A stretch of 64,000 bases of DNA from an uncultured Alphaproteobacteria bacterium (GCA_934254585.1 CAKQLF010000001.1:28093-92092), one strand, 5' to 3'. Counted from the first letter of the stretch, positions 695 to 52,610 are shown. Numbers and translations are program-made. Notes: generated from the sequence alone by a model not told the origin.

Positions 695-3600
695 CTATAT
701 CTCCTTTACTAATGTTACGCCGGCAATTGCCCTGATTGACGACAATAATGAACCATCGGCCAATGCATAGCCGTTTTTCAGCTCTATACGAATATTCCAA
801 TCTTCAATTTCAGGCTTGATATAAACTTTATTGGTGCCATATCTTTCGTGTGACAGAACTTGACGCAACGGGCGCACTGCCTCAACATTGTTTATAACAA
901 TAACCAGTCCTTTGGAATTTTCGGTAATTTCCTCGTCTAATGTTTTTATAACGTTAAACAACATCCGCGGCGGCATATCTTCGGCCTGCTTTTCTATTTT
1001 TACTTTGACATATAACGGCAAACCGCTGTTTATGGCGTGTTCAAATTTAGTTATGCCGTCTGAAAATAACAACCCCTCATAGGCTGAAGTTGTGTCAGAA
1101 AGCTTAACAAATGCAAAAGGTTTTCCGCTTTTACTGATTTTACGCTGAAAACTTTGCAGGCAACCGGCTAAGTTGGCATAAATAACATCTCCGGTTTTTA
1201 TACCTTTAACCGCTTCGGCATAAGTGCTGACACCCAAGCGTTCCATACTTTCCTTATACACATCAAGCGGGTGCGCCGACAAATAAAATCCAATGGCTTC
1301 CGCCTCAAGCTGCAAGCGTTCCAAAGCCGGAAAATCAGGTTTATCCTGCAACTTAACTTTAGCATTAAGCTCCTCATTGCCAAACAAAGAAGTCTGATTA
1401 CTGTTCTTTAATTCGGCCGCTGCCGCCATGTGACGCATTATATTTTCAATATTGGCGAAAAGCTTGCCGCGATTGGTGTCCAGACAATCAAAGGCTCCGG
1501 CTTTTATTAATTGCTCCAACTGCTTTCGGTTGATTTGTTTAACGTCCACACGATGAATAAAGTCGGAAACATCGCGGAATTTGCCGTTTTTTTCACGCTC
1601 CTCCACAATGGCGTTCATATTCGCTTCACCGACGCCTTTTAAGCCGGCCAAAGCAAAGCGGATATTGTTTCCCTCTACCTTAAACAGGGCGTTAGACATA
1701 TTGATATCCGGCGGCAAAACTTTATAGCCCATATTTTTAAACTCTTCGGTATAGAACAAAACCTTGTCGGTGTTTGTAATATCAAAGTCCATAATGGCGC
1801 ACATAAATTCAACCGGATAGTGGGCTTTTAAATACGCTGTTTGGTAAGAAATAAGCGAATATGCCGCGGCGTGGGATTTGTTAAAACCATAAGACGCAAA
1901 CTTTTCCATTTGGTCAAAAATAGTTTTTGCCACTTCACCATCAATACCTTTTTTGATAGCTCCTTCGGTAAACATTTCGCGCTGATGCGGAATTTCATCG
2001 CGCATTTTTTTACCCATAACCTTACGCAATTTATCGGCACCGCCCAAAGTGTAACCACCCAAAACCTGAGCAATTTTCATCACTTGCTCTTGGTAGACCA
2101 TAATTCCGTAGGTTTCACCGAGAATCGGCTCTAAATCAGGGTGTAGATATTTAATTTCTTCTCGCCCGTGCTTGCGGTTTATGTAAGTTGGAATATTATC
2201 CATCGGCCCCGGACGATATAGAGAAATAACCGCAATTAAATCTTCAAATCGGTCAGGTTTGATTTGCTTCATAACATCACGCATACCCGACGATTCAAAC
2301 TGGAAAATCGCACTGGTGTTGCCTTCCTGCATCAACTCGTATGTCGGTTTATCGTCTAAAGGAACCGATGCCATATCCAATTCAATACCGTGCGTTTTTT
2401 TAACCCAATCCACCGCGCGCTTGATAACCGTAAGGGTTTTCAACCCCAAAAAGTCGAACTTAATCAGACCGGTTTCTTCCACAAATTTCATATCATATTG
2501 AGTAACCGGCATTTCCGCCCGCGGATCTTTATAGAGCGGCACCAGTTGGTCAAGCGGTCTGTCGCCGATAACCACGCCGGCCGCGTGCATACCTGAGTTG
2601 CGGTATAACCCCTCCAACTTCATCGCAATATCAAACAATTTGTTAATCTGCGGGTCTTTTACGCGCATTTCTTCCAGTTCGGGCACTTGGTCAAGAGCCT
2701 CTTGCAAAGTCGGATTTTTTCCTCCTTGCCCAGGCGGAATCATTTTTGAAATTCTGTCAGCCTGACTATACGGCATTTGCAACACGCGCGCCACATCGCG
2801 AATAACGGCCTTAGACTGCAATTTACCATAAGTGATAATTTGCGCAACGTGATCGTAACCATATTTTTTTTGCACATATTCAATGGTCTTATGACGATTT
2901 TCCTGACACAAATCCACGTCGAAATCCGGCATATTAACACGTTCCGGATTCAAAAAACGCTCAAACAGTAAATCCAAACGAATCGGGTCAAGGTCGGTAA
3001 TTTTCAGTGCCCAAGCCACAATGGAACCGGCACCGGAACCTCGCCCCGGCCCAATCGGAACGCCGTGCGTTTTCGACCAACGAATGAAGTCCGACACAAT
3101 AAGGAAATACCCTGGGAAACCCATTTTCTTTATAACGCTTAACTCGTAATCCAAGCGTTCGTAATAGTGTCTGTCTGTTTCCGCCCGCTCTTCAGCCGTC
3201 ATTCCCTCGTGATAGACTTGGATTTTCATTCGCTCGTTTAAGCCTTTGTAGGCTTCTTCGGTAATAAACTCGTCTTGCGTTTTGCCATCAGGGCAAATGA
3301 AAATCGGTAGCAGCGGCTCCATTTTAGAAGACAGATAGTTGCAACGTTTAGCAATATTCACCGTATTTTCAACAGCTTCCGGAATATCCTTAAACAATTC
3401 CAACATTTCTGTTTCACTACGCCAATGGTTCCCCGGCAAATATTTGCGGCGGTTTTCATTCGCCACATATTCTCCGGCAGCAATACAGCATAGCGCGTCG
3501 TGCGCCTCATACATATTTTCATCAAAAAAGAACACATCGTTTGTGGCCACCAGCGGAATATTGTGCTTGTAAGCAAACTCCAAAAACACCGGTTCGGTTT

Positions 3601-4168
3601 TCTTTTCTTCTTCATAGCCCACGCGGGAAATTTCAATATAGAGTCTGTCGCCGAAAATTTCTTTATATTCAAGCAGTTTTTTTTCGGCTTCATCTTTACG
3701 ATTTTGCAAAATCAGACGACCGATAGGCCCCTCATAACCACCGGTAAGACATATTAAGCCCTCGTTAAAATCCCGCAAGTTTTGCATATTAAGCTGTGGC
3801 GTGTCGCTGTGTTCCATATTATCCAGATAGTAGCGGCGAAACATTTTCATAATAGATTTGTAGCCGTTTTCATTTTTAACTAAAAGGATAATCCTATCCG
3901 GCGGAAGTTCTTTGCCTTTTGACAGAGCTAAATTTTCCGAATCTTCGTTATGCACACAAAGTTCCGAGCCGAGAATCGGCTTAACGCCTTCATCTGAGGC
4001 ATATTTGGAAAAACATTTTCCCCCAAACAAATTGCCTCTATCGGTAATGGCGCAACTTGGTATTCCTAAATCGTGCATTTTGTGCACCAACTTTGGCACC
4101 AACATTGCTCCCAATGACAGCGAATAAGCGGTGTGAACGCGTAAGTGTATAAATTTTGGCTCGGACAT
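695..4168 (-). CDS. dnaE: DNA polymerase III alpha subunit
   Basis: 1157-aa ORF. N-terminal PHP domain (HLRVHTAYSL), followed by the palm/fingers region and an OB-fold-bearing C-terminus. Length and motifs are typical of DnaE. Confidence 0.95.
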   Translation of the reverse strand: MSEPKFIHLRVHTAYSLSLGAMLVPKLVHKMHDLGIPSCAITDRGNLFGGKCFSKYASDEGVKPILGSELCVHNEDSENLALSKGKELPPDRIILLVKNENGYKSIMKMFRRYYLDNMEHSDTPQLNMQNLRDFNEGLICLTGGYEGPIGRLILQNRKDEAEKKLLEYKEIFGDRLYIEISRVGYEEEKKTEPVFLEFAYKHNIPLVATNDVFFFDENMYEAHDALCCIAAGEYVANENRRKYLPGNHWRSETEMLELFKDIPEAVENTVNIAKRCNYLSSKMEPLLPIFICPDGKTQDEFITEEAYKGLNERMKIQVYHEGMTAEERAETDRHYYERLDYELSVIKKMGFPGYFLIVSDFIRWSKTHGVPIGPGRGSGAGSIVAWALKITDLDPIRLDLLFERFLNPERVNMPDFDVDLCQENRHKTIEYVQKKYGYDHVAQIITYGKLQSKAVIRDVARVLQMPYSQADRISKMIPPGQGGKNPTLQEALDQVPELEEMRVKDPQINKLFDIAMKLEGLYRNSGMHAAGVVIGDRPLDQLVPLYKDPRAEMPVTQYDMKFVEETGLIKFDFLGLKTLTVIKRAVDWVKKTHGIELDMASVPLDDKPTYELMQEGNTSAIFQFESSGMRDVMKQIKPDRFEDLIAVISLYRPGPMDNIPTYINRKHGREEIKYLHPDLEPILGETYGIMVYQEQVMKIAQVLGGYTLGGADKLRKVMGKKMRDEIPHQREMFTEGAIKKGIDGEVAKTIFDQMEKFASYGFNKSHAAAYSLISYQTAYLKAHYPVEFMCAIMDFDITNTDKVLFYTEEFKNMGYKVLPPDINMSNALFKVEGNNIRFALAGLKGVGEANMNAIVEEREKNGKFRDVSDFIHRVDVKQINRKQLEQLIKAGAFDCLDTNRGKLFANIENIMRHMAAAAELKNSNQTSLFGNEELNAKVKLQDKPDFPALERLQLEAEAIGFYLSAHPLDVYKESMERLGVSTYAEAVKGIKTGDVIYANLAGCLQSFQRKISKSGKPFAFVKLSDTTSAYEGLLFSDGITKFEHAINSGLPLYVKVKIEKQAEDMPPRMLFNVIKTLDEEITENSKGLVIVINNVEAVRPLRQVLSHERYGTNKVYIKPEIEDWNIRIELKNGYALADGSLLSSIRAIAGVTLVKEI

Positions 4169-4217
4169 AATGTCAATCGGGAGACTCAGTTTAGAGTCCC
4201 CCTCTCTCTCGGTTTAA

Positions 4218-4463
4218 TTATTTGTTGTCTTGACCGGCTTTCTGATAGCAGCGGCAATGACAAATACCATCGCGCTCAATATCACTGCGGCAAAGCTCGG
4301 AAATGCAATATCTTTTTTCGTTTGTTCCGTCACAAGGACAACGCTGCCATTCGGCATCGCCAAACATCATATTTTTTGCTTTTGCAATTTTTTCTATGTT
4401 CTGTGTCGGATAATAACCGGCTTTTTTGCAGTTTTCTAACATTTTTTCTAAAATCGTAGCCAT
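4218..4463 (-). CDS. ferredoxin-thioredoxin-reductase catalytic-subunit-like Cys-rich protein
   Basis: 81-aa ORF with SD aggaga 7 nt upstream. Cys pattern CPC...C....C....CHC resembles the FTR catalytic beta chain. Confidence 0.45.
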   Translation of the reverse strand: MATILEKMLENCKKAGYYPTQNIEKIAKAKNMMFGDAEWQRCPCDGTNEKRYCISELCRSDIERDGICHCRCYQKAGQDNK

Positions 4464-4473
4464 TTTGTTTCTC

Positions 4474-5388
4474 CTATCTTTGTTCTAAAATATCTAAAAG
4501 TGTGCTTAATTCAGCAGGTGTGTTGTAGTGCAATGTTATACTACCTTTACCTTTTTTTCCAGCATTTATTTTAACTTTAAGTTTTAATTTTGCTTCCAAA
4601 TCCGCCATAATTCTTTCAATATCTTTATCAATGGTTTTTTGTGCTTTCGGAGCAATATTTTTTACATCAAGTTCTTTGTAATTTGCAGCCAAGGCTTCCG
4701 CCTCGCGCACGCTTAAACCCTCGTTGATAATTTTTGCGGCGAGCTCCGCGGCATTATCTTTACCGACTAAAGTTCTGGCGTGACCGGCTGACAATTTATT
4801 TTCTTTTATCATTTGCTTTATTTCGTCCGGCAAGCTCAAAAGTCGCAAAGTGTTGGCAATGTGACTACGAGATTTGCCAATGACTTTGGCTATAACCTCT
4901 TGGGTGTATTCATATTCACTCATCAAGCGGTTAAGCCCCTCAGCCTCTTCTATTGCCGAGAGATTTTCACGCTGTAAATTTTCAATTAAGGCAATTTCAA
5001 GCGTTTCGCTATCCGTCAAATTTTTAATAACAGCTGGCACAGATTCTAAGCCGGCCAATTTAGCGGCTCGCCAACGACGCTCACCGGCAATAATTTCATA
5101 TTTTTCGCCTTTTTTACGCAAAAGAAGTGGCTGCAGAATACCTTTTTCTTTTATGGATTGCGCCAATGTTTCCAATGCTTCCTGATTAAATTCCGTTCGC
5201 GGTTGAAAACTGCAAGGCTCAATATTTTCTATATTTATTTCATTGGAGTTTTCGCTTTTAAATACACTGTTCTCCACAAAACTATTAACATCTGCAGTTT
5301 CATCATCTAAATTTAAGTTCAGGTCTTCATCACCCAACAAAGCCTCAAGACCGCGTCCCAGTCCGAACTTTTTATTATTTGTATTCAT
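4474..5388 (-). CDS. parB: chromosome partitioning protein ParB
   Basis: ParB/Spo0J motifs (GERRWRAA, HTH region KSRSHIANTLRLL). Lies immediately downstream of parA. Confidence 0.9.
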   Translation of the reverse strand: MNTNNKKFGLGRGLEALLGDEDLNLNLDDETADVNSFVENSVFKSENSNEINIENIEPCSFQPRTEFNQEALETLAQSIKEKGILQPLLLRKKGEKYEIIAGERRWRAAKLAGLESVPAVIKNLTDSETLEIALIENLQRENLSAIEEAEGLNRLMSEYEYTQEVIAKVIGKSRSHIANTLRLLSLPDEIKQMIKENKLSAGHARTLVGKDNAAELAAKIINEGLSVREAEALAANYKELDVKNIAPKAQKTIDKDIERIMADLEAKLKLKVKINAGKKGKGSITLHYNTPAELSTLLDILEQR

Positions 5389-5389
5389 T

Positions 5390-6157
5390 TTACAACTCCT
5401 TTTCCCTTTTTAAGACTTCTTTAGCCAATTGTATATAGGCTTGAGCTCCGGCACTTTTGAAATCATATATCAAAATAGGCTTTCCGTGCGATGGAGCTTC
5501 CGCAATACGCACACTACGCGGTATAACCGTTTGATACACCTTGTCGCCAAAATATTTTCTAACATCGGCTTCAATCATCTGACTTAAATTATTTTGTTTG
5601 CTGTACATCGTCAAAATAATTCCCTGCAAACTAAGCGAGGGATTAAAATTACGCTTGATAGCGTTAATATTTTTCATTAAATCAGCCAAGCCTTCCAAGG
5701 CTAAAAACTCACATTGCAATGGCACCATAACCGAATTTGAACTGACTAAGGCGTTAATTGTAATCAAGTTCAAAGATGGAGGGCAATCAATCAGCACATA
5801 ATCATAGATATGGGCTAAATTGCTCAACGCTTTTTTCAAAACAAACTCACGGTGTTCAACCTCAACCAATTCAATTTCAGCCGCGGCTAAATCAGGAGAA
5901 GAAGGAATCATATCAAATCGCGGTAAATCCGTATGAATTACGGCATCTTTGACATCACATTTTCCAATCAACACATCGTATGATGAAAAATGCTCTTTTT
6001 GCTTTGGGATTCCCATTGAGGTTGTGGCGTTGCCCTGCGGGTCAAAGTCTATAACCAAAACTTTCTTTTCAATTGCCGACAACGCTGTGGCAATATTAAT
6101 TGTGGTTGTTGTTTTTCCCACACCGCCTTTACGGTTCGCAACAGAAATTATTTTCAT
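5390..6157 (-). CDS. parA: chromosome partitioning ATPase ParA
   Basis: Deviant Walker A KGGVGKTT, 255 aa, in a parA-parB operon. Confidence 0.9.
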   Translation of the reverse strand: MKIISVANRKGGVGKTTTTINIATALSAIEKKVLVIDFDPQGNATTSMGIPKQKEHFSSYDVLIGKCDVKDAVIHTDLPRFDMIPSSPDLAAAEIELVEVEHREFVLKKALSNLAHIYDYVLIDCPPSLNLITINALVSSNSVMVPLQCEFLALEGLADLMKNINAIKRNFNPSLSLQGIILTMYSKQNNLSQMIEADVRKYFGDKVYQTVIPRSVRIAEAPSHGKPILIYDFKSAGAQAYIQLAKEVLKREKEL

Positions 6158-6780
6158 TTTATCTTCCTTAAATCAAAAATTTCATACAAATAACCATCTG
6201 CACAATATTTGTTGGCAAAGCTATTGACTTTGAATATCCATTTTTTTCTTGCTTCTTGCAATTCTTCATTTCCGCTTTTACCTTTAAGTAACAAATAGCG
6301 AGTATTTTTTGAGTATATAGTTTTTGTAAAGTTAAAAATCTTATCAATTGTCGCAACAGCGCGCGCTGTTATATAATCCGCATTTTTAAATACAATGTTT
6401 TCAGCACGATTATTAACAACTTCAACATTCGTTAAACCCAAACAACCGCAGACATCTTTTAAATACACTGTCTTTTTAGTTATACTTTCAACTAAAACAA
6501 TCTTCGCTTCCGGAATTTTTTCTTGTAAAGCTATTGCCAACACAATTCCGGGGAAGCCGGAACCGCTTCCGATATCTATAATTAATTTTGCATTATTATC
6601 TATATGTTCAAGCAATTGTAAAGAATCTAAAATATGCCGAAAATCCAATTCGTTTTCCGCGTTTTTACTGACAAGATTTATCTTTTGGTTCCACTCCAAT
6701 AGTTGAACCTTAAAATCTTTTAATTTTTGCAATGTTTCACGTGAAACATTATATTTTAAAACTTCTTCATCAAAACTCAT
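6154..6780 (-). CDS. rsmG: 16S rRNA m7G527 methyltransferase RsmG (GidB)
   Basis: SAM-binding motif IDIGSGSGFPGI. Adjacent to mnmG and parA in the conserved order. Confidence 0.88.
   Translation of the reverse strand: MSFDEEVLKYNVSRETLQKLKDFKVQLLEWNQKINLVSKNAENELDFRHILDSLQLLEHIDNNAKLIIDIGSGSGFPGIVLAIALQEKIPEAKIVLVESITKKTVYLKDVCGCLGLTNVEVVNNRAENIVFKNADYITARAVATIDKIFNFTKTIYSKNTRYLLLKGKSGNEELQEARKKWIFKVNSFANKYCADGYLYEIFDLRKIK
6733..6748. promoter_or_regulatory. parS site (perfect TGTTTCACGTGAAACA) inside rsmG
   Basis: The 16-bp palindrome was read directly. Confidence 0.9.
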
Positions 6781-6845
6781 TTTTGCCTCTGTCTAAAGAC
6801 TAATGGGGATTTTTTATTTATGCAACAAAATATCTTGGTTATTAA

Positions 6846-7691
6846 CTAAAACTTCAAACGATTCTTAATTTTGTGCGCGGCAAGTGTAGCTTCGGCCAAA
6901 TCAAAACTATCCCCCAATTCAGCAACGCTGTGAGCATCATCACTTATCACAAAACTAATGTTACGTTTTGCAGCTTCCGTCAGTATCCAGTCGCAAGGAT
7001 AAAAATCCCCTATCTTCCGCAAACCTTTGCTACTTATTTCCATAGGCATATTCTGTTTTTGCAGCGCGTTTAAAATTGATATCTTTTCGCTTTTATAATC
7101 GTCTTTTGCGCAAAACTCTTCACCAATCTTACGAGCATAGTCAAGATGAGCCAAAAATTTAAATACACCGCTTTCAACCGCCATTTTAATAGTGTTGAAA
7201 TGACGTTGCAATAAATCTTTCTGCAAACTTTTATCAGGACAGAGCACCGGTAAGTCAGTAATATCAAATAAATTTTCGCATTTTTCATCAAACAACATAT
7301 GATTTCCGGAGATTAAATAATCATAATCAAGTTTATTTAAAAAATCTTTTAATTCTTCCAACCAACCATCATAAGTAAAAAAATCAACCTCGAATCCAAC
7401 GTACAATTTAAAATTTTCTCGTTCGGACAGTTTGCGAATTTTTTCACAATGACGTTGATAATCACTTAAAACAGACTTAAAATCATTATTAAAAATATTA
7501 TATTTACCGCGCTTATGCCAATATGGCCAAGATAAGCTTTGCGCCATATTTTTATGCACTATCAGATGGTCGCTGATTCCAAGTTCTTTGAACCCGATTT
7601 TTTTAGCTTTCGCCACCATTTCTTCCAAACTATTATTACCATCAGAAAAATTTGTGTGCGAATGATAAGAAAAATTTTGAATATCCGTCAT
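6846..7691 (-). CDS. PHP-domain phosphoesterase (histidinol-phosphatase-like)
   Basis: N-terminal HSHTNFSDG followed by DHL, the PHP metal-binding signature. 281 aa. Confidence 0.65.
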
Positions 7692-9571
7692 TTTTTTAAA
7701 TAACCTAAAATCGCGGTTACAGCAGCCGGTGTTACACCGCGAATGCGAGCGGCCTCGCCAATTGTTTTTGGGCGCACCAGAGTAAATCTTTGAATCATTT
7801 CCGTAGAAAGACCACCGATTTTACTATAATCTATATCTTCCTTTATTTCCAAATTTTCATCACGCTTAAACACCGCAATATCTTCATATTCACGTTTCAA
7901 ATATCCAGAATATTTTGCATCAATCTCAACCTGTTCAAACACATCGTTTTCAACCTTGCCGGTTTCCGGAAACAGTGTAGAAATTGTTTCACGTGAAACA
8001 TCTTGATAGCCAAGCAAATCTTTTAACGTTTTTTTACCATTATGTTTTACGGTTATTCCCAGTTTTTCAATTTCCGGATATGACACAATTTTATCACAGC
8101 AAAACTCGTTAAACTTGGATATTTTTTCTTCTTTTATTTTAAATACACTGTATCTATTTTCTGAAACACAGCCAATATTGTAACCTAATTCCGTCAAACG
8201 ACTGTCCGCATTGTCGGCGCGCAACACCAAACGATATTCCGAACGAGAAGTAAACATTCGATATGGCTCATCAACGCCCTTGGTTATCAAATCATCAACC
8301 ATAACTCCGATATATCCCTGACTACGGTCAATTTTTAATTCCTTATTTTTATTTAGAGCAAACAGTGCCGCATTTACGCCGGCAAGCAATCCTTGGGCTG
8401 CCGCCTCTTCGTATCCGGTTGTTCCATTAATTTGTCCGGCCAAATATAATCCTCTGGTCTTTTTTACAGCCAAACAATGGTCAAGTTCTTGCGGGTCGAC
8501 ATAATCATATTCAATGGCATAGGCATAGCGCAAAATTTCAACATTTTCCAAACCCTTCATTGTGTGAATAAATTCATCTTGCACATCGGCGGGCAAAGAG
8601 GTTGAAATTCCATTTGGATAGACAACATTTGTGTCGTAACCCTCGGGCTCCAAAAATATCTGATGAGATGTTCTATCCGCAAAACGTACCAACTTATCTT
8701 CAATACTCGGGCAATAGCGCGGACCTTTACCGGTTATCAATCCGGAAAACAAAGCGCATTTAGAAAAATTATCACGAATAATCTTATGGGTAGTTTCGTT
8801 TGTATATGTAACACCGCAATCAATTTGCTTATTTGAAAGATTTTTTGTTAAAAATGAAAATGGTATCGGATTTTTATCGCCGCTTTGCTTTTCCAAAACA
8901 GCCCAATTAATCGTATCACCATTTAAGCGTGAAGGCGTTCCGGTTTTTAAGCGACCAAGTTTTAACCCCAAAGATTTTAAATACGGTGTTACGCCAGTAC
9001 AGGAAATATCTCCGACACGGCCTCCGATACTAGTTTGATGACCGGTAAACATTATGCCGTTCAAAAATGTTCCTGTTGTTAAAACAACAGCCTTTGCTCT
9101 GTATTCCGAATTGTCAGCCAACTGCACTCCGCAAACCTGTTTATTTTCATCAATAAGCAAACCTTCAACCGCTCCCTCTTTTAATTCAAGATTCGGAGTA
9201 TTAGCCAGTGCCTCTTGCATATATTTTTTGTAAAGACTCCTGTCTGCTTGAGCGCGAGGGCCTCGCACGGCCGGACCTTTGGAAAGATTCAACATTCTAA
9301 ATTGGATTCCGGCTTTATCAATAACTTGCCCCATTAAACCGTCAAGCGCGTCAATTTCTCTCACCAGATGACCTTTTCCCAAACCGCCAATTGCCGGATT
9401 GCACGACATTTCACCAATAGTGGATATTTTATGCGTTATTAATAAGGTTTTTGCTCCGGTTCTAGCCGCGGCCGCACAAGCTTCACATCCGGCATGACCG
9501 CCGCCGACAACAATAACATCAAATATATTATTCATCTTTTCCCTCATAAATTTTTTTATAATAAAGCACAA
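7688..9571 (-). CDS. mnmG: tRNA uridine-5-carboxymethylaminomethyl modification enzyme MnmG (GidA)
   Basis: FAD-binding [14 protein letters not shown], about 620 aa, conserved GidA core. The true start is probably internal (MNNIFDV). Confidence 0.95.
7985..8000. promoter_or_regulatory. parS site (perfect) inside mnmG
   Basis: Read directly. Confidence 0.9.
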
Positions 9572-9593
9572 ATATATTATAATTGCAAATTAA

Positions 9594-9625
9594 AATACGC
9601 TGTATAAATTTAAATACAGCGTATT
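9594..9625. repeat. perfect 12-bp inverted repeat aatacgctgtat-N8-atacagcgtatt between mnmE stop and mnmG start
   Basis: Read directly. The arms carry the AAATACAG core of the recurrent regional motif. It could also act as an mnmE terminator or an operator. Confidence 0.7.
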
Positions 9626-9657
9626 TATAAAAATATTTTTTAAATACATCGTTACAT

Positions 9658-11031
9658 TTATTTGCCAATGCAAAAACTACTGAAAATTTTATCTAAAATT
9701 TCATCAACTTCAACCTGTCCGGTAATTTTGCCAATAGCGCGGCAAGCCAGACGAATATCCTCGGCAGCCAATTCAATTTCTTTATGCAAATTAAAGCGAG
9801 ATAAATTTTGCAAACATTCGCCCAACGCCTCTTTATATCGCTGACGAGTTATAAGTTGGGCAGTGCCTTTTTCATACATATCCTGAAATGTTTTATAAAT
9901 AGTTTCGGTTATAACGGAAATATTTTTACTTTCTTTGGCCGATATTAAAGCACAACCATTTTTTATTAAGTCGGCTTTTTCAGCTTCATTAATCTTATCC
10001 ATTTTGTTAGCCACAAACAAATAAGGAACTTCTATTTTATTTAAGTATTCCGAAAATATTTCCGGCGTATCCACCGCGGCGTCAAACATAAACAAACAAA
10101 AATCAGCTTCGGCAATTTTATCCTTAGCTAATTTGACACCAATTTGCTCTATTTCATCAGCAGTTTCCCGCAAACCGGCCGTATCTGAAAAAATAACCGG
10201 AAAGCCTTGGATATCGACATAAGTTTCAATCACATCACGCGTTGTACCGGCAATGTCTGAAACAATAGCCACGTTGCGTTTAACAATAGCGTTTATCAAG
10301 CTTGATTTTCCGGCGTTGGTCGGTCCGGCAATCACAACCTTAAAGCCATCACGCAAGCGTTCTTCTATTTTATTATCCTGAATATGCTTTTCTATTTCCT
10401 CAGATATTTTAAATACACCATTTTCAATTTTAAATACAGTGTCCTCAGGTATATTTTCATCAGGAAAATCAATATACGCCTCAATATATGACAGTATCGA
10501 CACCAAACGCGAACGCCAATCATTATACAAATTAAACAGATTTCCGCCCATTTGCTGCAAAGCAACTTTTTGCTGCAAAGAAGTTTCAGCATCAATCAAA
10601 TCAGCCAAGCCATCAGCCTCGGTCAAATCCATTTTACCATTATAAAAAGAGCGGCGTGAAAATTCTCCGGGTTCAGCCAACCGAAAATCAGGCAAAGCCG
10701 ATAAAGCGGTGAGAAAGCTTCTTATAACTGCCTTCGAACCGTGGCAGTTTATTTCAACAGTGTCTTCACCGGTAAAAGAAGCCGGAGATTTAAAAGCCAC
10801 TAACAAAGAATTATCCAATGTTTCACGTGAAACAGGATTATAAAACTTTGTTAAATACATTTTACGGCTGACAATTTTAGAAACATCTAAATCCGTCATT
10901 TGTGAAATAACGTCAAAAGCTTTTGCTCCGGAAATTCGAATTACGGCAACTCCGGACTTTCCAAAAACCGTTGACAAGGCATAAATTGTTTTGTTATCCA
11001 TTTTTATCTTTCTTCTGTTATTAAAATTCAC
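9658..11031 (-). CDS. mnmE: tRNA modification GTPase MnmE (TrmE)
   Basis: G-domain motifs GPTNAGKSSL, DTAG and NKMD, with C-terminal CIGK. Likely start is at the internal MDNKTIYA. Confidence 0.9.
   Translation of the reverse strand: MNFNNRRKIKMDNKTIYALSTVFGKSGVAVIRISGAKAFDVISQMTDLDVSKIVSRKMYLTKFYNPVSRETLDNSLLVAFKSPASFTGEDTVEINCHGSKAVIRSFLTALSALPDFRLAEPGEFSRRSFYNGKMDLTEADGLADLIDAETSLQQKVALQQMGGNLFNLYNDWRSRLVSILSYIEAYIDFPDENIPEDTVFKIENGVFKISEEIEKHIQDNKIEERLRDGFKVVIAGPTNAGKSSLINAIVKRNVAIVSDIAGTTRDVIETYVDIQGFPVIFSDTAGLRETADEIEQIGVKLAKDKIAEADFCLFMFDAAVDTPEIFSEYLNKIEVPYLFVANKMDKINEAEKADLIKNGCALISAKESKNISVITETIYKTFQDMYEKGTAQLITRQRYKEALGECLQNLSRFNLHKEIELAAEDIRLACRAIGKITGQVEVDEILDKIFSSFCIGK
10819..10834. 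promoter_or_regulatory. parS site (perfect) inside mnmE
   Basis: Read directly. Confidence 0.9.
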
Positions 11032-11153: not shown

Positions 11154-13064
11154 TTAACGACCGTGATTTATTCGTTGCAGACAATTATGTTGCGAATTTG
11201 CTGAATTATTCGGTTGCCTAACATTTAAGCATTTTTGCAAATCAGCTGCCGGAATATCTTTCATATTTTTCAACAACGTGAAATCTGTCGGTAAATTTCC
11301 TTTCATTTGACGCTTGTTCACAACACAAGCAACATAAAGTTTTAAGGCTTGTTCTTTAGTTAGGGTATCCTTAAAAATTATCGGCTTGTTTTTATTACTC
11401 GGTTCCTGTAATAATTTTATATACGCATTATATTCAGCATCTTTATTTAAGTTCACCTTGTTTTTTGCCTTATAAGATATTATGCTTTCATTTACGGCAA
11501 ATGTGTATTCGTTTTCTGTGCTTGCTAATTCTTTATATCCATCAATTTTCTGCCAATATTCTCTTAAATCTTTACTCCATTTGACAGGCTGAGGAGTCAC
11601 TATTGGCCGCGGCTGAACAAAATCGTCCGGCAAAGAGGAAATTTCCAAACCGTTTATTTGATTAATAAAACGCGGATTGTGAAGATTATCTCGCATTAAT
11701 CTTTTCGCTTCCGGCACTAACTCCGGATTAATTATTCCCCTGCTCTTATCACGATTATATTCCGTCAAACGGCGAGACAATTTTTGTTGAGACGGAATAA
11801 TTATATTTTGCCTTGCATCTGCGTCTATTTTAACCTCTTGTTCGGGACGAATCAGACTTGCTAAATTCTTTTCTTCGTAAGCTCCGGTTTGCGGATTATA
11901 TAACTTATAATGATATAAAAGCGAACGGCGAAGAAAAAATTCTTTTCTGTCATCATCACTTGGAACCGTAAGTGGAACTTTTTCCATTCGAATTAGTAAA
12001 TTATCTTTGAACTGTTGAGAATCATAGTCTTTATGATGATTTCTCTCGAATGATTTAAATGCCACATCCAGTAAAACCGGCAAATTTTGCACATATTGCA
12101 AACGCTGTCCGCGCGGCAAACCACTAACCGTCCGCACAAGCTCCTTAGCCTCGATATCAAACATCGTGAAATCATCAAGATTGCCGTTTTTCATATAGAC
12201 ATTTACCGCATTGATAATTTGCGAAAGATAGGCACTGCGTTCGTCCTCCACCTCCAGACGATAATAATCTTCAACCGACATCCTTTTTTCGGTGTCTTTC
12301 AGACTTAATCCCGCCATAAGAGCGTTATTCTTAATGTGTGTAAGCTCGTGCTTCAAAATCAATAGACGATGATTAACTGTGTTATATTCGTTTGCATAAA
12401 TATTAAATAAACTTCTCTCACGGGAATCACGAATCGAACTTACAAACTGAAAAACACTTAACGTCGGATTATTGCGCTTATTTCTTTCCCAAGAAGCAAT
12501 CAATCGCTGCATCGTAATATATTCTGCCGGCGGCAAAGTAAAATGATTTCGCACTAAAATAATTTTACGTTTATCCGTATTGACTGAAGCACGGCGTTTT
12601 GAAAAGTCTCGTATATCATATTCTTGACTAACATTGTCAAAATAAACATCATATAAATTATCTTCAGGCTCTATCTGAAAACCAAGATTTTTGATTAGTG
12701 GTGAAATTTCCATATCATCAATATGATTATCAAAGTGCAAAGTACAAGGTTTAGAGCGTATGTGTGCCGGAATATTATCGGTTGATACCTGATTTTCATA
12801 GTTATACTGTTGCTTGCGCAAATCCATACGGAATATTTCTTTATTTATAAAATTAGTATTATCAACGTCAAAGGAATCATACATTTCTTGTCCGGAATGT
12901 TGGTAGCGGACAAACAAATTAAAAAATTCAGATTGCGTGCGCTGTTCGCAAAATTGTTTATAGGCCAAAACCTTACGTCGCTTTTCAGCATCATTATTAT
13001 AGTCCAAGTTGAAAACGATAATACTATTATCTGCCGTATGCAGCAACAATTTTTCTTTGGTCAT
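11154..13064 (-). CDS. hypothetical protein with HExxH zinc-metallopeptidase-like motif (effector-like)
   Basis: 636 aa, no signal peptide. Motif LILKHELTHIKN with downstream acidic residues (SVEDYYRLEVEDE). No other recognisable domain. Inserted between mnmE and typA. Confidence 0.55.
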   Translation of the reverse strand: MTKEKLLLHTADNSIIVFNLDYNNDAEKRRKVLAYKQFCEQRTQSEFFNLFVRYQHSGQEMYDSFDVDNTNFINKEIFRMDLRKQQYNYENQVSTDNIPAHIRSKPCTLHFDNHIDDMEISPLIKNLGFQIEPEDNLYDVYFDNVSQEYDIRDFSKRRASVNTDKRKIILVRNHFTLPPAEYITMQRLIASWERNKRNNPTLSVFQFVSSIRDSRERSLFNIYANEYNTVNHRLLILKHELTHIKNNALMAGLSLKDTEKRMSVEDYYRLEVEDERSAYLSQIINAVNVYMKNGNLDDFTMFDIEAKELVRTVSGLPRGQRLQYVQNLPVLLDVAFKSFERNHHKDYDSQQFKDNLLIRMEKVPLTVPSDDDRKEFFLRRSLLYHYKLYNPQTGAYEEKNLASLIRPEQEVKIDADARQNIIIPSQQKLSRRLTEYNRDKSRGIINPELVPEAKRLMRDNLHNPRFINQINGLEISSLPDDFVQPRPIVTPQPVKWSKDLREYWQKIDGYKELASTENEYTFAVNESIISYKAKNKVNLNKDAEYNAYIKLLQEPSNKNKPIIFKDTLTKEQALKLYVACVVNKRQMKGNLPTDFTLLKNMKDIPAADLQKCLNVRQPNNSANSQHNCLQRINHGR

Positions 13065-13126: not shown

Positions 13127-13690
13127 TTATACCCGACCATTTTCACGTTTTTGAACTTGCTGATTTTGCAGCTGATATTCTTGATAATGATAATCAAGTT
13201 CATATCGCACATTGCGAAGCAAACTTTCGTCTTTTGGAGCTCTGTCAATAGCTTGCAGCAAAGAGTTTCCTCCCTTGCTGTTTAATATTGATTGCATCAT
13301 ATTGCGCTCGGTAGCGTCCAACACCATATATAGATTTATAACCAAATTATTTAAATATGTATTACCGGCTAAAGGCGGCTTATCGCCATATCTATCCGCA
13401 AGAAAATCGGCAAATTTTTGGCGTATAGCCTCCTGCTCTCGTTTTTTACCAAGTTCAATCTCATTATGTTTTACCACAGCCTTTTGCCACATTTCTATAC
13501 GATTGTTCAAGGTTAACCCCAAAGATTTGTATGATTCCATACGCTGAGCCGGATTCAAACACTCTTCACACTTTTGCGGCAAACCAAAATGATTTTGCAA
13601 TGATTTTCTAAACAGCTCGCAAAATGTGTTCTTAGCCTTCAAAAAAGGGCAATATTCCGGACATAATTTATGATTTTCTTGCTCTGACAT
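13127..13690 (-). CDS. hypothetical Cys-rich protein
   Basis: The track ORF starts at a TTG (13720). The better start is ATG 13690 with SD gggaga 6 nt upstream. N-terminus carries CPEYCP...C...CEEC, a zinc-finger-like arrangement. It sits upstream of the HExxH gene on the same strand. Confidence 0.5.
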   Translation of the reverse strand: MSEQENHKLCPEYCPFLKAKNTFCELFRKSLQNHFGLPQKCEECLNPAQRMESYKSLGLTLNNRIEMWQKAVVKHNEIELGKKREQEAIRQKFADFLADRYGDKPPLAGNTYLNNLVINLYMVLDATERNMMQSILNSKGGNSLLQAIDRAPKDESLLRNVRYELDYHYQEYQLQNQQVQKRENGRV

Positions 13691-13742
13691 ATCATTCTCC
13701 CTATTTTCAGGGTAACGCAAAAATGCTTAATTTTCAATAAAT

Positions 13743-13769: not shown

Positions 13770-15620
13770 TTATTCCATAGCTTCCGGTTTAGCTCGCTTA
13801 CGGGCAATAGGATCCAAAATTCGTTTTCTTAAACGCAATGATTTCGGAGTAACCTCCAAAAGCTCGTCAGCCTGAATATAAGCCAAAGCCTGTTCCAAAC
13901 TCAATTTACGAGGCGGAATCAAATCTATGGCTTCATCTTTGCCGGCGGCGCGGATATTGGTCAATTGCTTAGATTTTGTCGGGTTAACTTCAATATCGTT
14001 ATATTTTGTATGTTCACCGATAATCATACCAACATACACCGGACTATTGTGCTCAACAAACATCGGGCCGCGGTCTTGCAGTTTCCACAAAGAATAAGCA
14101 ATTGCCTGACCGTTTTCGCTGGAAATCATCACCCCGTTGCGACGATCTTCAATTTCACCCTTATACGGCTCAAAAGCATAGAAAATACGGTTCATAACAC
14201 CGGTTCCGCGTGTATCTGTCAAAAATTCCGAATGATAACCAATCAAACCGCGGGAAGGAGCGTGGAAAATCAAACGCACTTTATTACCGACTTGAGACGG
14301 AATCATTTCTACCAATTCCGCACGGCGTTTGCTTAATTTTTCTACCACCGCGCCAGAAAATTCTTCATCTACGTCAACCACAACTTCTTCAACCGGCTCT
14401 AAAAGCTGACCATTTTCATCGCGTTTCATAATAACGCGCGGACGGGAAATTGAAAGTTCAAAGCCTTCGCGACGCATAGTTTCAATCAAAACACCAAGCT
14501 GCAACTCACCGCGACCGGCCACTTCAAAAGTGTCTGAATTATCGGTGCGAGAAATTTTAAGCGCGATATTACCTTCGGCTTCTTTTTCCAAACGTGCCCA
14601 AATCACACGGGATGTAACTTTATCACCTTCCTTGCCGGCCAAAGGCGAATCATTCACAGAAAAAGTCATTGCCAATGTCGGCGGGTCAATCGGCTGAGCT
14701 TTGATAAAATCTTTAACATCAACGTCTAAAGCGCAAATAGTGTCGGCAACCGTGCCTTTAACAATTCCGGCAACAGCAACAATATCTCCGGCGTGAGCCG
14801 AATCCAAAGCCACTCTTTCCAATCCTTTATAGGCCATAATTTTAGTAATTTTAGCCCGCTCTACTTCGCCACGCTCGTTAATAACTTTTACCGCATCGTT
14901 AACCTTAACGCTGCCGCTCTGAATCTTACCGGTCAAAATACGACCGACAAACTTATCAGATTCCAAAGTTGTCGCCAACATTCTAAATGGTTTATCAGGC
15001 TCGCAAACCGGCTCGCTGACATAAGACACAATGGTTTCAAACAGCGGCGTTAAATCTTTATGTTCATCACTAAGCTCGCGAACAGCCCAACCATTGCGGC
15101 CTGAAGCGTATAAAATAGGAAAATCCAATTGTTCATCACTTGCATTCAAGCTGACAAACAAGTCAAAGATTTCATTCAAAACTTCATCAGGGCGAGCGTC
15201 CGGCTTATCGGCTTTATTAATAACAACTATCGGTTTTAAGCCGATTTTTAAAGCTTTTCCCAACACAAATTTCGTTTGCGGCATCGGACCTTCAGAGGAG
15301 TCAACCAACAAAACAACGCCATCAACCATTGACAAAATACGTTCAACTTCACCACCGAAGTCAGCGTGTCCCGGAGTATCTACAATGTTTATATGAGTAC
15401 CGTGCCAGTCAACCGAGGTGCATTTTGAAAGAATTGTAATACCTCTCTCTCTTTCCAATGCGTTGCTATCCATAACACAATCAGCCACTTTTTGATTATC
15501 ACGGAATGTACCGCTTTGCCGCAACAAACCATCAACCAAAGTTGTTTTACCGTGGTCAACGTGGGCAATTATGGCAATATTTCTCATACTCATAAATTTA
15601 TCCTTTTTTAAAATCTCCAC
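13770..15620 (-). CDS. typA: translational GTPase TypA/BipA
   Basis: AHVDHGKTTL, DTPGHADF and NKADK G-motifs, with an EF-G-like C-terminal domain. About 600 aa. Confidence 0.9.
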   Translation of the reverse strand: MEILKKDKFMSMRNIAIIAHVDHGKTTLVDGLLRQSGTFRDNQKVADCVMDSNALERERGITILSKCTSVDWHGTHINIVDTPGHADFGGEVERILSMVDGVVLLVDSSEGPMPQTKFVLGKALKIGLKPIVVINKADKPDARPDEVLNEIFDLFVSLNASDEQLDFPILYASGRNGWAVRELSDEHKDLTPLFETIVSYVSEPVCEPDKPFRMLATTLESDKFVGRILTGKIQSGSVKVNDAVKVINERGEVERAKITKIMAYKGLERVALDSAHAGDIVAVAGIVKGTVADTICALDVDVKDFIKAQPIDPPTLAMTFSVNDSPLAGKEGDKVTSRVIWARLEKEAEGNIALKISRTDNSDTFEVAGRGELQLGVLIETMRREGFELSISRPRVIMKRDENGQLLEPVEEVVVDVDEEFSGAVVEKLSKRRAELVEMIPSQVGNKVRLIFHAPSRGLIGYHSEFLTDTRGTGVMNRIFYAFEPYKGEIEDRRNGVMISSENGQAIAYSLWKLQDRGPMFVEHNSPVYVGMIIGEHTKYNDIEVNPTKSKQLTNIRAAGKDEAIDLIPPRKLSLEQALAYIQADELLEVTPKSLRLRKRILDPIARKRAKPEAME

Positions 15621-36699: not shown

Positions 36700-36872
36700 T
36701 TTTACCTTAAATTTTGTATGATTGTTAAAAATAGAATGTGAAACATTGAAATGTTTGTTGGTTTGCTTATATAAAAGATGAAGTTAAAAGTCAAATGTTT
36801 TTTATGCACATTTCTTTTCCCTTATTAATATTTTAAATTTAAATAGTTATTGTTATATATGCTTGCGAAATA

Positions 36873-36894
36873 TGTGGATAAATTTATATCCACA
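36873..36894. promoter_or_regulatory. inverted pair of DnaA boxes (tgtggataa / atatccaca)
   Basis: The 9-mer TTATCCACA is perfect on the minus strand at 36873-81. It matches 8 of 9 on the plus strand at 36886-94. Confidence 0.6.
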
Positions 36895-36927
36895 GAGTTA
36901 ATAACATTAATAAATTGTTTAACAAAG

Positions 36928-36969
36928 TTAATAAATAGTTAATTATTCAATAAGTTAAAAAATAGTTAA
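36928..36969. promoter_or_regulatory. two CtrA-box-like sites TTAA-N7-TTAA within an 18-bp direct repeat AGTTAAnAAATAGTTAAT
   Basis: ttaataaatagttaa (36928-42) and ttaaaaaatagttaa (36955-69). The region is about 80% A+T with several gttaataa repeats. Confidence 0.35.
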
Positions 36970-37097
36970 TATTTTTTTCAACATATCTTAATAAAATTTA
37001 TCTGATGTTAATAAGTTTGTATAATATTTTTACAAAAAGTTGATACTTTGTTAAAAACTAAAGTTGTAATAAAGTTATGCACATTTTGGGGTGTGTT

Positions 37098-37106
37098 TGT
37101 GGATAA
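37098..37106 (-). promoter_or_regulatory. DnaA box (perfect TTATCCACA) 30 nt upstream of coaE
   Basis: tgtggataa read directly. Confidence 0.6.
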
Positions 37107-38436: not shown

Positions 38437-39697
38437 CCAACTCAATAATGTTTATAAAACTTACATAAATAAAAGAATGCTTATATTATTGGCCTTGGGT
38501 TTTACCAGCGGTTTTCCTTTTTTATTAGTGTTCGGAACTTTGAGTTTTTGGTTAAAAGATTTGGATATTTCCTATACTTTAATAGGTACTTTTTCTTTGG
38601 TTAAAATTCCGTATTCGTTAAAATGGGCTTGGTCACCCATAATTGATAATGTGAAAATACCTTTTTTATATAAGTTAGGACGCCGCCGTTCTTGGGCCGT
38701 TTTTATTCAAATTTTATTGTTTTGCGCTTTGATTGCTATGGCCTTAACTAAGCCGGAAATACACACTTTATATATGGCGATGTTTGCATTGCTTGCCAGT
38801 TTTTTGTCAGCTTCTCAAGATATTGTTTTGGACGCATTCAGAGTTGAAAGCTTTGAAAATGAACCCGAAAAACAAGCATCTGGTGTGGCTATTTATGTTT
38901 TGGGGTATAGATTGGGATTGATTTTTTCAGGTGCCGGCGCAATTTATTTAGCCTCGGTAATTGATTGGTCTGAAGTGTATATGATTATGGCTTGCGGTTT
39001 GCTTGTCGGATTAACCGCGATTTTATTGGCAAAAGAACCGCAAAAATATATTTATAAAAAATATAAATTTAAGTTTAAAGACAGTGTTCTGTTTTTTAAA
39101 AATTCAATAATAAACCCTTTTAAGGATTTTATTAAACATCAGCATTGGTATTGGATATTATTTTTTATTTTTACATATAGATTAAGCAACGCTTATTTTG
39201 CACCTATGAGTTTTCCTTTTTATGTGGATTTAGGTTTTACAAAAGCGGAAATTGCTTCAGTTATAAAAGTTTATGGTATGGTCGCGGCTATTTTAGGCGG
39301 GTTAACCGGTGGTTTGATTATTATGAAAATAGGTTTGAAAAAAAGCTTGATGTTTTTTGGTTTGGCTCAATGTTTGACAACATTTTTGTTTGCGTTGCAA
39401 GCAGAATACGGGCATAATATGCCGCTGTTTATGATTATAATAACTTTAGAAAATTTTTCTTCAGGTTTGGCCACTACGGCTCTGGTTGCTTATATATCAT
39501 CGCTATGCAACAAACTATATACGGCAACACAATATGCATTGCTGTCATCGGTAATAAGCTTATCAAGAGATATTTTTGCTTCAACAAGCGGTATGCTTGC
39601 GCAAATGGTTTCGTGGCAGGTGTTTTTTATTATTTGCGGATTTTTAAGTTTACCAAGCTTGTTTGTTGTGTGGTTTTGTTTTAAAACCGATAAATAA
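38426..39697 (+). CDS. ampG: MFS transporter, AmpG-like (muropeptide permease)
   Basis: About 12 TM segments. 423 aa. N-terminal FPFLLVFGTLSFWLKD resembles AmpG. Confidence 0.6.
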   Translation: MMLNQLNNVYKTYINKRMLILLALGFTSGFPFLLVFGTLSFWLKDLDISYTLIGTFSLVKIPYSLKWAWSPIIDNVKIPFLYKLGRRRSWAVFIQILLFCALIAMALTKPEIHTLYMAMFALLASFLSASQDIVLDAFRVESFENEPEKQASGVAIYVLGYRLGLIFSGAGAIYLASVIDWSEVYMIMACGLLVGLTAILLAKEPQKYIYKKYKFKFKDSVLFFKNSIINPFKDFIKHQHWYWILFFIFTYRLSNAYFAPMSFPFYVDLGFTKAEIASVIKVYGMVAAILGGLTGGLIIMKIGLKKSLMFFGLAQCLTTFLFALQAEYGHNMPLFMIIITLENFSSGLATTALVAYISSLCNKLYTATQYALLSSVISLSRDIFASTSGMLAQMVSWQVFFIICGFLSLPSLFVVWFCFKTDK

Positions 39698-52370: not shown

Positions 52371-52610
52371 GGTTATTTAAGCTCCTATTAGCTATTTTGT
52401 TAAAACGAAGTTACAGCCCGCAAGCGAACCATAACTAAAATTAAAAAAACTTCAATTTGCCTTGAATGTATAACACAAAATGTCAGACTTCAAGCAAAAT
52501 ATCACATTTTTCGGGAAAAAAATATGGACATAATTGCTTATTTTTACGCAAAAAATAAAAAGGTTGTCAAAATACAGACAACCTTTTTCAAATACACTTT
52601 TTCAAAGGGC

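Follow-up and report, generated by a model that had tools for sequence, protein, structure and literature searches.

A co-oriented 17-nt motif array interleaved with parS: putative second docking sites at the centromere of uncultured gut Alphaproteobacteria

The parS/ParB system is regarded as the main sequence-specific component of the bacterial centromere, and in other bacteria ParB loads SMC at the parS region. Likewise, proteins that organise or anchor the chromosome can be directed to a single region by an array of specific sites, as in RacA/ram, Noc/NBS, SlmA/SBS and MatP/matS, whose sites are palindromic, spread over hundreds of kilobases and free of any orientation rule. Here we describe a motif array in a 64-kb stretch of DNA from an uncultured gut alphaproteobacterium, which was analysed as a whole and is called the window below. 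The motif shares with parS its multi-copy 16–17 bp sites inside mnmE, mnmG and rsmG, its synonymous conservation and its confinement to a few kilobases. In contrast to parS, which is a perfect palindrome and needs no orientation, it is asymmetric, strictly co-oriented and has no half-site in common with it, and unlike the ram, NBS, SBS and matS arrays it spans 5–9 kb, lies atop parS and is polar. Judged by its sequence features, the array looks like a second, hitherto undescribed set of putative docking sites at the bacterial centromere, an element that shares the few kilobases of parS and is conserved as strictly, but has an obligatory direction.

All 11 copies of the core 9-mer TTTAAATAC in the window are on the plus strand, within the 8.6 kb between 1827 and 10437, and none lies on either strand of the other 53 kb. 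Extended to the full motif, which reads on the minus (gene) strand, the array comprises ten copies of a single orientation in and between the genes around the parS sites. One lies in parB (5257–5273, AGAACAGTGTATTTAAA, frame V-F-K), within the disordered NSVFKS linker that joins the N-terminal peptide to the CTPase domain, and has an orthologous copy in the W-group relatives. Two are in rsmG, at 6385–6401 (AAAACATTGTATTTAAA, frame V-F-K, kept in relatives) and 6458–6474 (AAGACAGTGTATTTAAA, frame Y-L-K), and one is in a PHP/HisJ-family gene (7158–7174, AAAGCGGTGTATTTAAA). Copies in mnmG cover codons 472–477 (8138–8154, GATACAGTGTATTTAAA) and codons 194–198 (8976–8992, GTAACACCGTATTTAAA). The mnmE-mnmG spacer holds a copy at 9609–9625 (AATACGCTGTATTTAAA) that forms one arm of a 13-bp hairpin, the second arm (9590–9606) being a weaker mirror image of the motif, and another directly past the mnmE stop codon (9639–9655, GTAACGATGTATTTAAA). 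The remaining two, at 10408–10424 (AAAATGGTGTATTTAAA) and 10429–10445 (AGGACACTGTATTTAAA), are 21 bp apart within mnmE.

As the preliminary description had claimed, the coding copies fall in different codon frames, six as V-F-K and three as Y-L-K; the third frame would carry a TAA stop. The motif thus uses both stop-free frames, and it also occurs in protein linkers and spacers. All sites listed in that description (5257, 6457, 8137, the hairpin arms at 9594–9625, 9638, 10407 and 10428) are present, but its list was incomplete, lacking the copies at 6385–6401, 7158–7174 and 8976–8992 as well as a motif-like copy on the minus strand of dnaE (1827–1843, CAAACAGCGTATTTAAA). The latter is probably fortuitous and outside the selected array, because the key G of the motif wobbles freely among relatives: the peptide QTAYLKAHYP is fixed, with its Ala codon appearing as GCG, GCC or GCA. 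The partial copy reported near 52590 is real, with two mismatches, and one further copy, with a single mismatch, lies at 39074–39087; by an estimate from base composition, about 0.5 such matches would arise by chance. The contigs retrieved for the latter site all encode the identical protein.

On the gene strand the consensus is aaaACRnYGTATTTAAA, 17 nt of about 22 bits with sharp edges. An invariant AAA closes an imperfect inverted repeat of 7-1-7 layout, AAAwACR-n-YGTATTT, whose right half-site is invariant and whose left one is weaker. The symmetry extends to the core ACRnYGT, in which the two degenerate positions are mirror counterparts (R versus Y) and vary by transitions only. Such a core is typical of two-fold recognition of duplex DNA. 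Across about 50 independent site positions the 17-nt element is the sole shared sequence, and the 30 nt to its left and right contain no further conserved box; sites thus turn over while selection maintains an array. Its roughly 22 bits would be about enough to specify some 10 sites in a genome of ~2 Mb (an assumed size), suggesting a dedicated locus marker, as parS is.

Scanning 33 loci from related species (~30 species) with a weight matrix revealed 6–11 copies per genome, interleaved with 2–3 parS sites and confined to the mnmE-mnmG-rsmG-parA-parB stretch. The motif is absent from ~230 kb of flanking sequence in relatives; its confinement is defined over the window and the loci and flanks of relatives. 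When k-mers in the mnmE-parB zone were compared with those in the flanks of 17 genomes, the top two enriched 8-mer families were the motif and parS. Among 21 genomes, 25 of the 355 conserved degenerate codon columns of mnmG keep one codon in at least 95% of sequences, eight of them belonging to the two motif sites and three to the parS site, so that motif sites are frozen at synonymous positions just as the parS site of the same gene. At 8138–8154 the codons AGA TAC nnT GTA TTT AAA are frozen in 20 of 21 clade genomes. At 8976–8992, ACA and TTA are frozen in all 21; the next codon reads CCG in 18, the others having TCG or GTG with the G retained, and TAT is conserved in 20. Amino-acid changes at the mnmG sites therefore keep the motif base, and the variable codon is always nnT. 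Non-preferred codons (CCG, TAC, GTG and CTG) are among those frozen at motif sites. Outside coding sequence, the spacer copy at 9609–9625 is kept in 6 of 8 aligned sequences, the hairpin in only 4 of 8, and the copy past the mnmE stop is found at the same position in all 8. The motif is under purifying selection as DNA, not as peptide.

Three perfect parS sites are interleaved with the array: TGTTTCACGTGAAACA in rsmG (6733–6748), one in mnmG (7985–8000), whose codons GTT TCA .. GAA are as frozen as the motif codons, and one in mnmE (10819–10834), adjoined by a weak motif-like 14-mer with two mismatches (10850–10863). The array zone runs from mnmE to a few hundred base pairs past parB and extends by ~2 kb past the last parS at either end. 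Co-localisation with the parS cluster, already proposed in the preliminary description, was seen in every relative examined. The label "origin-proximal" given there did not hold, as the array is tied to the parS/ParB zone: oriC lies at 36.8–37.1 kb, with canonical DnaA boxes clustered at 36802–37106, about 26 kb from the array. In relatives with oriC directly upstream of rho-mnmE the array occupies the same genes (mnmE-parB), so the ~24 kb between rho and mnmE in the window are absent from those relatives; here the array is on the mnmE-parB side of this stretch. The position of the array is linked to the parS zone and not to oriC.

All 201 copies in the 33 loci have one orientation and none the other. 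In L008, L009, L011 and L018, two to three copies are antisense within the 3′ part of a convergent gene for the CCA-adding enzyme, and L147 carries three copies just past parB at matching positions. In L011 and L018 the antisense copies are found past a strong intrinsic terminator that follows parB, and GTG and CTG codons preserve the motif there. A convergent gene breaks up the stretch into separate units in L011, L018 and L021, with motif polarity unchanged. Wherever oriC is visible in a locus, the motif is on the lagging-strand template, and orientation relative to the oriC-to-parB direction is the sole property true of all 201 copies, the ones within convergent genes among them. The polarity tracks the chromosome axis rather than the host gene. 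This strict single orientation is the most unusual feature of the array and was absent from the preliminary description.

The motif does not match several described classes of sites. Its consensus lacks the half-site GTTTCAC of the parS palindrome TGTTNCACGTGAAACA, and genuine parS sites are separate and nearby. Compared with the DnaA box TTATNCACA, the opposite strand (TTAAATACA) matches at 6 of 9 positions, with the conserved C at position 6 replaced. The CtrA box of Alphaproteobacteria, TTAA-N7-TTAA, whose spacer is not conserved, would correspond on the opposite strand to TTAA-ATACRnY-GTTT, with a wrong second half and a "spacer" that is the most conserved part. Iterons and DnaA-box arrays share an obligatory direct-repeat orientation, which arises from head-to-tail stacking of their proteins, but iterons are contiguous, have a period of ~22 bp and sit at an origin, whereas the motif forms dispersed direct repeats, 21 bp to more than 1 kb apart, inside genes and 26 kb from oriC. 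DUS/USS elements occur about once per kilobase throughout the genome and frequently form inverted pairs in terminators; the motif lacks such a genome-wide distribution and has one inverted pair (the hairpin at 9594–9625), which is not conserved as a hairpin. A sigma-70 or other bipartite promoter, with its two boxes ~17 bp apart, is contradicted by the missing second box within 30 nt and by a TG in the wrong register for an extended −10, and a mobile repeat (REP/MITE) by unrelated flanks across the ~50 site classes and by most copies being in frame in essential genes. We also compared IHF sites, the NrdR box, the marbox, Fur-type 7-1-7 boxes, dif/XerCD arms, LexA boxes, PUF elements, −1 frameshift heptamers and the PAM-plus-seed of Cas12/TnpB, none of which fits the conservation profile. 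RNA-guided recognition is disfavoured because the free N falls inside the would-be seed. A translational role through MnmEG-dependent codons is ruled out by the two frames, the spacer copies and the antisense copies.

Building on the observed motif, its confinement, the DNA-level selection, the link to parS and the polarity, we infer binding by a protein, duplex DNA as the bound form and a role at the centromere. Our tentative preference, which we hold at somewhat under an even chance, is that the array represents putative recognition sites of a clade-specific DNA-binding factor acting direction-sensitively on the ParB/parS centromere. A dedicated sequence-specific factor limited to this clade would recognise the copies in double-stranded DNA. 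The invariant right half and weaker left half point to a dimer or two-module protein seated in one defined orientation. Bound sites may add a second nucleoprotein layer to the centromere, which could hold, organise or anchor the ParB-bound region or modulate ParB or SMC loading. As all sites point from oriC to parB along the chromosome, the bound complex would have to meet something directional, possibly a head-to-tail assembly of bound proteins or a process travelling along this arm. Occupancy of duplex sites alone needs no single orientation, so this binding model requires an extra assumption to account for the 201:0 ratio. A strong polar roadblock at the array is unlikely in either direction, because transcription of the operon meets the sites from one side and that of the convergent genes from the other.

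Other explanations have to be weighed against this one. The array could lack function and be a by-product of a recurrent peptide (VFK/YLK), codon bias, a small mobile repeat or chance. The genome is AT-rich, and the dnaE copy is explained by a fixed peptide and codon usage; against this, searching the window for a 15-mer with up to two mismatches gave 16 matches where 2.08 are expected, a count reached in none of 100 shuffles, and protein-preserving synonymous-codon shuffles yielded on average 1.04 copies (maximum 5 in 1000) versus 9 observed. VFK and YLK tripeptides number 12 in the array genes versus 0 in six neighbouring genes. Add the frozen non-preferred codons, the spacer copies and the dissimilar flanks, which argue against a mobile element, and the probability of a functionless array becomes minute. 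The codon shuffles and the frozen codons of mnmG also bear out the earlier claim that the motif is maintained at the DNA level. A different proposal is a co-transcriptional element of the mnmE-parB units, read on nascent RNA or on the non-template strand of the transcription bubble, that would act on elongation, pausing, antitermination or RNA processing in the manner of ops/RfaH, boxA/NusB-NusE or an RNase site. It would account for the ~90% of site classes on the sense strand of co-directional genes, for the spacer copies directly past the mnmE stop and beside a terminator-like hairpin, and for degenerate positions that vary by transitions only, as wobble pairing would tolerate; UGUAUUUAAA may loosely resemble AU-rich boxA cores. 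However, ops and boxA/nut elements are always on the sense strand, upstream of the terminators acted on and few per operon, whereas the motif has 6–11 copies per genome, some of them past the terminator of parB, on the antisense strand of a convergent gene whose codons are still constrained. As polarity also survives the splitting of the units and Rfam finds nothing in the region, we regard a co-transcriptional element as unlikely.

The two remaining proposals take the polarity as their starting point. A replication-coupled, strand-specific signal could be read as the fork from oriC passes the centromere, either as a helicase-specific polar pause of the Tus-Ter/RTP-Ter type or as a mark by which the two sister centromeres could be told apart. 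The oriC-to-parB orientation common to all copies is in keeping with this, and Ter sites are likewise asymmetric, multi-copy, often intragenic and of one orientation per replichore, RTP sites even pairing a strong with a weak half-site. Ter sites, however, are dispersed around the terminus, whereas the array lies next to oriC and parS and, if homologous, would turn its blocking face to origin-derived forks, which seems harmful. Between the segment TGTATTTAAA and the E. coli Ter core, TGTAACTAAA, 8 of 10 bases agree, a likeness that is not significant given the many comparisons made. No Tus-like or RTP-like gene was seen within the 64-kb window, no mirrored motif set lies on the other arm of oriC within 27 kb, and the symmetric core speaks for duplex over single-strand recognition; a replication signal is distinctly unlikely. 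Alternatively, the motif might serve as a polar guide or barrier for a DNA-tracking motor starting at the centromere, ParB-loaded SMC or a translocase of the FtsK/SpoIIIE/TraB type, and act like KOPS, SRS, clt repeats or the oriented CTCF sites met by cohesin. Strict co-orientation, clustering exactly where ParB loads SMC in other bacteria and the zone reaching beyond parS on both sides are in keeping with such a guide. KOPS/FtsK, SRS/SpoIIIE and clt-TRS/TraB also function in an orientation-dependent manner along the chromosome, clt as a local cluster of direct repeats. These known guides, though, are G-rich sequences of ~8 bp, KOPS and SRS being genome-wide, whereas the motif is a 17-nt, AT-rich, local element that neither the remaining 53 kb of the window nor the flanks of relatives contain. 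The sites are not mirrored around parS, contrary to what a symmetric barrier predicts, and no translocase gene is linked to the array, which makes a motor guide quite improbable.

The search for a partner covered the conserved neighbouring genes, none of which is a plausible DNA binder. The small ORF after parB encodes a weak FtrB/FTR-like Cys-rich protein without a solved-structure match, the PHP gene a HisJ-family phosphatase, and the insertion in L013 comprises genes for HD-domain and MurA-like proteins. Two family-less ORFs beside mnmE were rejected as universal partners, being present in only 8 of 23 loci compared. Literature searches gave unrelated matches for the motif string and nothing fitting for a second oriented motif at parS. 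Rfam identified three tRNAs in the whole window and nothing in the array region. Scanning viral contigs with AACASTGTATTTAAA returned at least 120 stretches; the 80 inspected were each single-copy, as background, and gave no link to a phage or plasmid.

If a protein binds the motif, it would be a newly recognised component of the machinery that segregates the chromosome or organises the origin region in a widespread group of uncultured gut and rumen Alphaproteobacteria. A bolder reading, which we consider rather unlikely, is that the array is a direction-encoding centromere element, read by the travelling replisome or by parS-loaded SMC, that would make sister centromeres or loop-extrusion directions unequal. 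It would then be a bacterial counterpart of oriented CTCF sites or a centromere-proximal fork pause, with a factor of no described family. Should the polarity stem from replication or from loop extrusion, this element would provide a system for investigating how direction is sensed at centromeres. More generally, frozen synonymous codons can reveal cis elements hidden in housekeeping genes. In other lineages, no dispersed, oriented in-gene arrays of another sequence were found around parB; L225, L199 and L186 showed only local iteron-like or tandem repeats there. ParB itself looks ordinary.

The array falls within a series of genes on the minus strand, from dnaE through mnmE: dnaE (695-4168), a small Cys-rich ORF (4218-4463), parB (4474-5388), parA (5390-6157), rsmG (6154-6780), a HisJ-family PHP gene (6846-7691), mnmG (7688-9571) and mnmE (9658-11031). 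Three perfect parS sites (TGTTTCACGTGAAACA) occur at positions 6733, 7985 and 10819. Every motif copy listed in the preliminary description was recovered in the window, but its inventory had overlooked good copies at 6385, 7158 and 8976, plus one at 1827 in dnaE. Allowing up to two mismatches, a 15-mer of the motif gave 16 matches against 2.08 expected, a number reached by none of 100 shuffles. The core 9-mer TTTAAATAC is present 11 times between 1827 and 10437, exclusively on the plus strand, and is absent from the rest of the window on both strands.

An iteratively refined weight matrix yielded the gene-strand consensus aaaACRnYGTATTTAAA (about 22 bits). Twelve gene-strand sites score at least 15 within 1827-10445, including the weaker mirror arm of a spacer hairpin. 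Outside this interval, only two gene-strand sites were found at a 12-bit threshold: a weak one (12.2) near 631 and a one-mismatch copy, ACACTGTCTTTAAA, at 39074-39087 (minus strand), antisense within an MFS transporter gene 2 kb to the right of oriC. The A-to-C variant of the latter recurs in relatives' copies above the matrix threshold, and we estimate from base composition that about 0.5 one-mismatch matches would be expected by chance. Across about 50 independent site positions with equal weights, the motif edges are sharp and no second box accompanies the motif within 30 nt.

The coding copies read V-F-K six times and Y-L-K three times, which bears out the earlier statement that the motif falls in different frames; both stop-free frames are used, while the third would give TAA. 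The accompanying claim, that the motif is maintained as DNA rather than as a peptide, is supported by codon shuffles and by frozen codons in mnmG. Within-gene shuffling of synonymous codons left 1.04 copies compared with the 9 observed, and no shuffle among 1000 retained more than 5. When the mnmG codons of 21 genomes are aligned, both motif sites, ACA CCG TAT TTA AAR and AGA TAC nnT GTA TTT AAA, are near-invariant, while the codons flanking them vary freely. Amino-acid changes at these sites spare the motif base: TCG or GTG takes the place of CCG, and the third base of the variable codon is always T. A single codon is used in at least 95% of genomes in 25 of 355 conserved degenerate columns, eight of which lie in the two motif sites and three in the parS site. 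The mnmG parS thus provides a positive control within the gene itself, frozen at the codon level with the same signature as the motif. VFK and YLK tripeptides together number 12 in the array genes and 0 in six neighbouring genes, and the parB copies sit in disordered segments (an N-terminal linker in one group, a C-terminal tail in another). The peptide appears to be dictated by the DNA element, not the DNA by the peptide. We treated the dnaE copy (1827) as fortuitous; there, the peptide QTAYLKAHYP is fixed and its Ala codon varies between GCG, GCC and GCA, so that the motif G is lost in four relatives.

The nearest genomes by MnmG (68-96% identity) are uncultured gut and rumen Alphaproteobacteria. 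Of 25 genome loci retrieved with MnmG, 22 carried the 9-mer, with 159 copies on the gene strand and two on the other, one of these two being the mirror arm of a spacer repeat. A metagenome scan with ParB added ten further clade loci (ParB at least 51% identical) with an unchanged pattern, while more distant ParB loci from the same scan had no such cluster, eight of them carrying a single stray 9-mer. In all, roughly 30 species bear the motif; sister Alphaproteobacteria without it include the lineages of L023 and L153-L225. At a matrix threshold of 17 bits, the 33 clade loci hold 201 copies in one direction and none reversed. The array extends in relatives from mnmE across parB and a few hundred bp beyond it, and orthologous copy positions are conserved in mnmE, mnmG, rsmG and parB. 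Among the 8-mers most enriched in the mnmE-parB zone relative to its flanks (17 genomes), there are only two families, the motif and parS. Their sites are interleaved in every genome, and the motif zone reaches about 2 kb past the outermost parS on each side. Viral contigs showed only single background copies among the matches listed.

Five DnaA boxes cluster at 36802-37106 in the rho / coaE-dnaQ interval (two perfect TTATCCACA, two TTATGCACA and one ATATCCACA). This cluster, which lies about 26 kb from the array, probably represents oriC, in agreement with the cumulative GC skew, which is lowest at 20-36 kb and climbs steeply beyond about 38 kb. Three loci from relatives (L005, L011 and L013) have DnaA boxes directly upstream of rho-mnmE, and there the array starts about 3 kb from oriC. 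In the window lineage, rho and mnmE are about 24 kb apart, and the array is in mnmE-parB, its location in both oriC arrangements. Searches with the core 9-mer and the 17-bit matrix found no copies beyond oriC in either. It is with the parS zone, and not with oriC, that the array is associated. Across oriC from it, smr contains a fourth parS at 56181-56196, near-perfect with a single mismatch (TGTTTCACGTGAAAAA) and with no motif copies near it.

The 24 kb between mnmE and rho (about 11100-35400) are missing in relatives with rho directly upstream of mnmE. They encode a 1637-aa BigA-like protein, an EF-hand protein, a double zinc-ribbon protein, HSP20 and many ORFs of no recognized family. A contig with an identical MFS protein (L229) carries other genes to the left of rho, which shows that the region varies between strains at least in its rho-proximal part.

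The truly unusual feature of the array is its strict polarity. Downstream of parB, four relatives (L008, L009, L011 and L018) have two or three copies within the 3' portion of a CCA-adding-enzyme gene that runs convergently; these copies are antisense to that gene and in the orientation of the array. Another locus, L147, has three copies past parB at matching positions. In L011 and L018, a clear and conserved intrinsic terminator (ATATGCC...GGCATAT with a T run after it; 14250-14285 and 14240-14275, respectively) separates parB from the antisense copies, whose codons, ACA GTG or ACA CTG, preserve the motif although such codons are uncommon in an AT-rich genome. Another convergent gene parts mnmE from mnmG in L011, L018 and L021, leaving the polarity unaltered. 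Taken together, the convergent-gene copies and the split loci show that all copies share one orientation along the oriC-to-parB axis, but not one orientation relative to their host genes. This makes an RNA-borne or transcription-bubble signal less likely. A strong polar roadblock at the motif is unlikely, because RNA polymerases arrive from both sides.

The core ACRnYGT is symmetric, its degenerate positions R and Y mirroring each other, and the extended element forms an imperfect 7-1-7 inverted repeat, AAAwACR-n-YGTATTT, with an invariant AAA after it. Judged from the sequence, this symmetry points to two-fold recognition of duplex DNA, and the information content would suit a factor with about ten targets in a small genome. 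We tentatively regard the array as putative binding sites of a clade-specific DNA-binding factor decorating the ParB/parS zone, a reading we hold at somewhat less than even probability; no plausible gene for such a binder is encoded near the array. A second class of binding sites beside parS, as proposed in the preliminary description, is thus kept as the likeliest, still putative reading, with its centre moved from the origin to the centromere. The strong right half and weak left half of the element would fix the orientation of the putative bound protein, and such proteins might assemble head-to-tail. That the array constitutes a new, direction-encoding component of the centromere seems to us rather unlikely. 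Among the remaining options for the direction, a helicase-specific or replication-coupled effect would accord with the motif strand being the lagging-strand template in loci with a locatable oriC; the other is that SMC or a different tracking motor is affected.

Literature searches returned no published description of the motif. In membership tests, it fell outside parS, DnaA boxes, CtrA boxes, KOPS-type sequences, uptake sequences, transcript-borne antitermination elements, bipartite promoters, iteron arrays and mobile repeats. In its logic the array resembles Ter sites (asymmetric, multi-copy, with a single orientation on each arm), and in its location parS and other locus-marking arrays. 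It is a clear match to neither, whether in sequence, in placement or in distribution.

The motif in the mnmE-mnmG spacer is kept in six of eight aligned sequences. The 13-bp hairpin at 9594-9625, with two motif-like arms and a U-rich tail, occurs in only four of the eight. Its presence in the window and three of seven relatives marks it as a lineage-specific terminator or attenuator, not a conserved feature. The whole 91-nt spacer has a minimum free energy of -18.2 kcal/mol (z = -2.7).

The Cys-rich ORF after parB (4218-4463, minus strand) encodes an 81-aa protein with a CPC...C...C...CHC pattern and only a weak FtrB/ferredoxin-thioredoxin-reductase-like match; it directly follows parB in 14 loci and is 70-95% conserved. 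Two minus-strand ORFs without a family match adjoin mnmE (11154-13064 and 13127-13720), one of 636 aa with a HELTH metalloprotease-like motif and one of 197 aa with a Cys-rich N-terminus, and both were found in only 8 of 23 loci compared. Unrelated lineages show other repeats near parB: AACTCGACA occurs seven times at 21-bp spacing beside the parS sites of L225 (8165-8795), GGAAATGCACA forms tandem arrays in L199 (11068-11354), and L186 (7737-9990) carries seven repeats resembling CAGAATGGAAATTAA.
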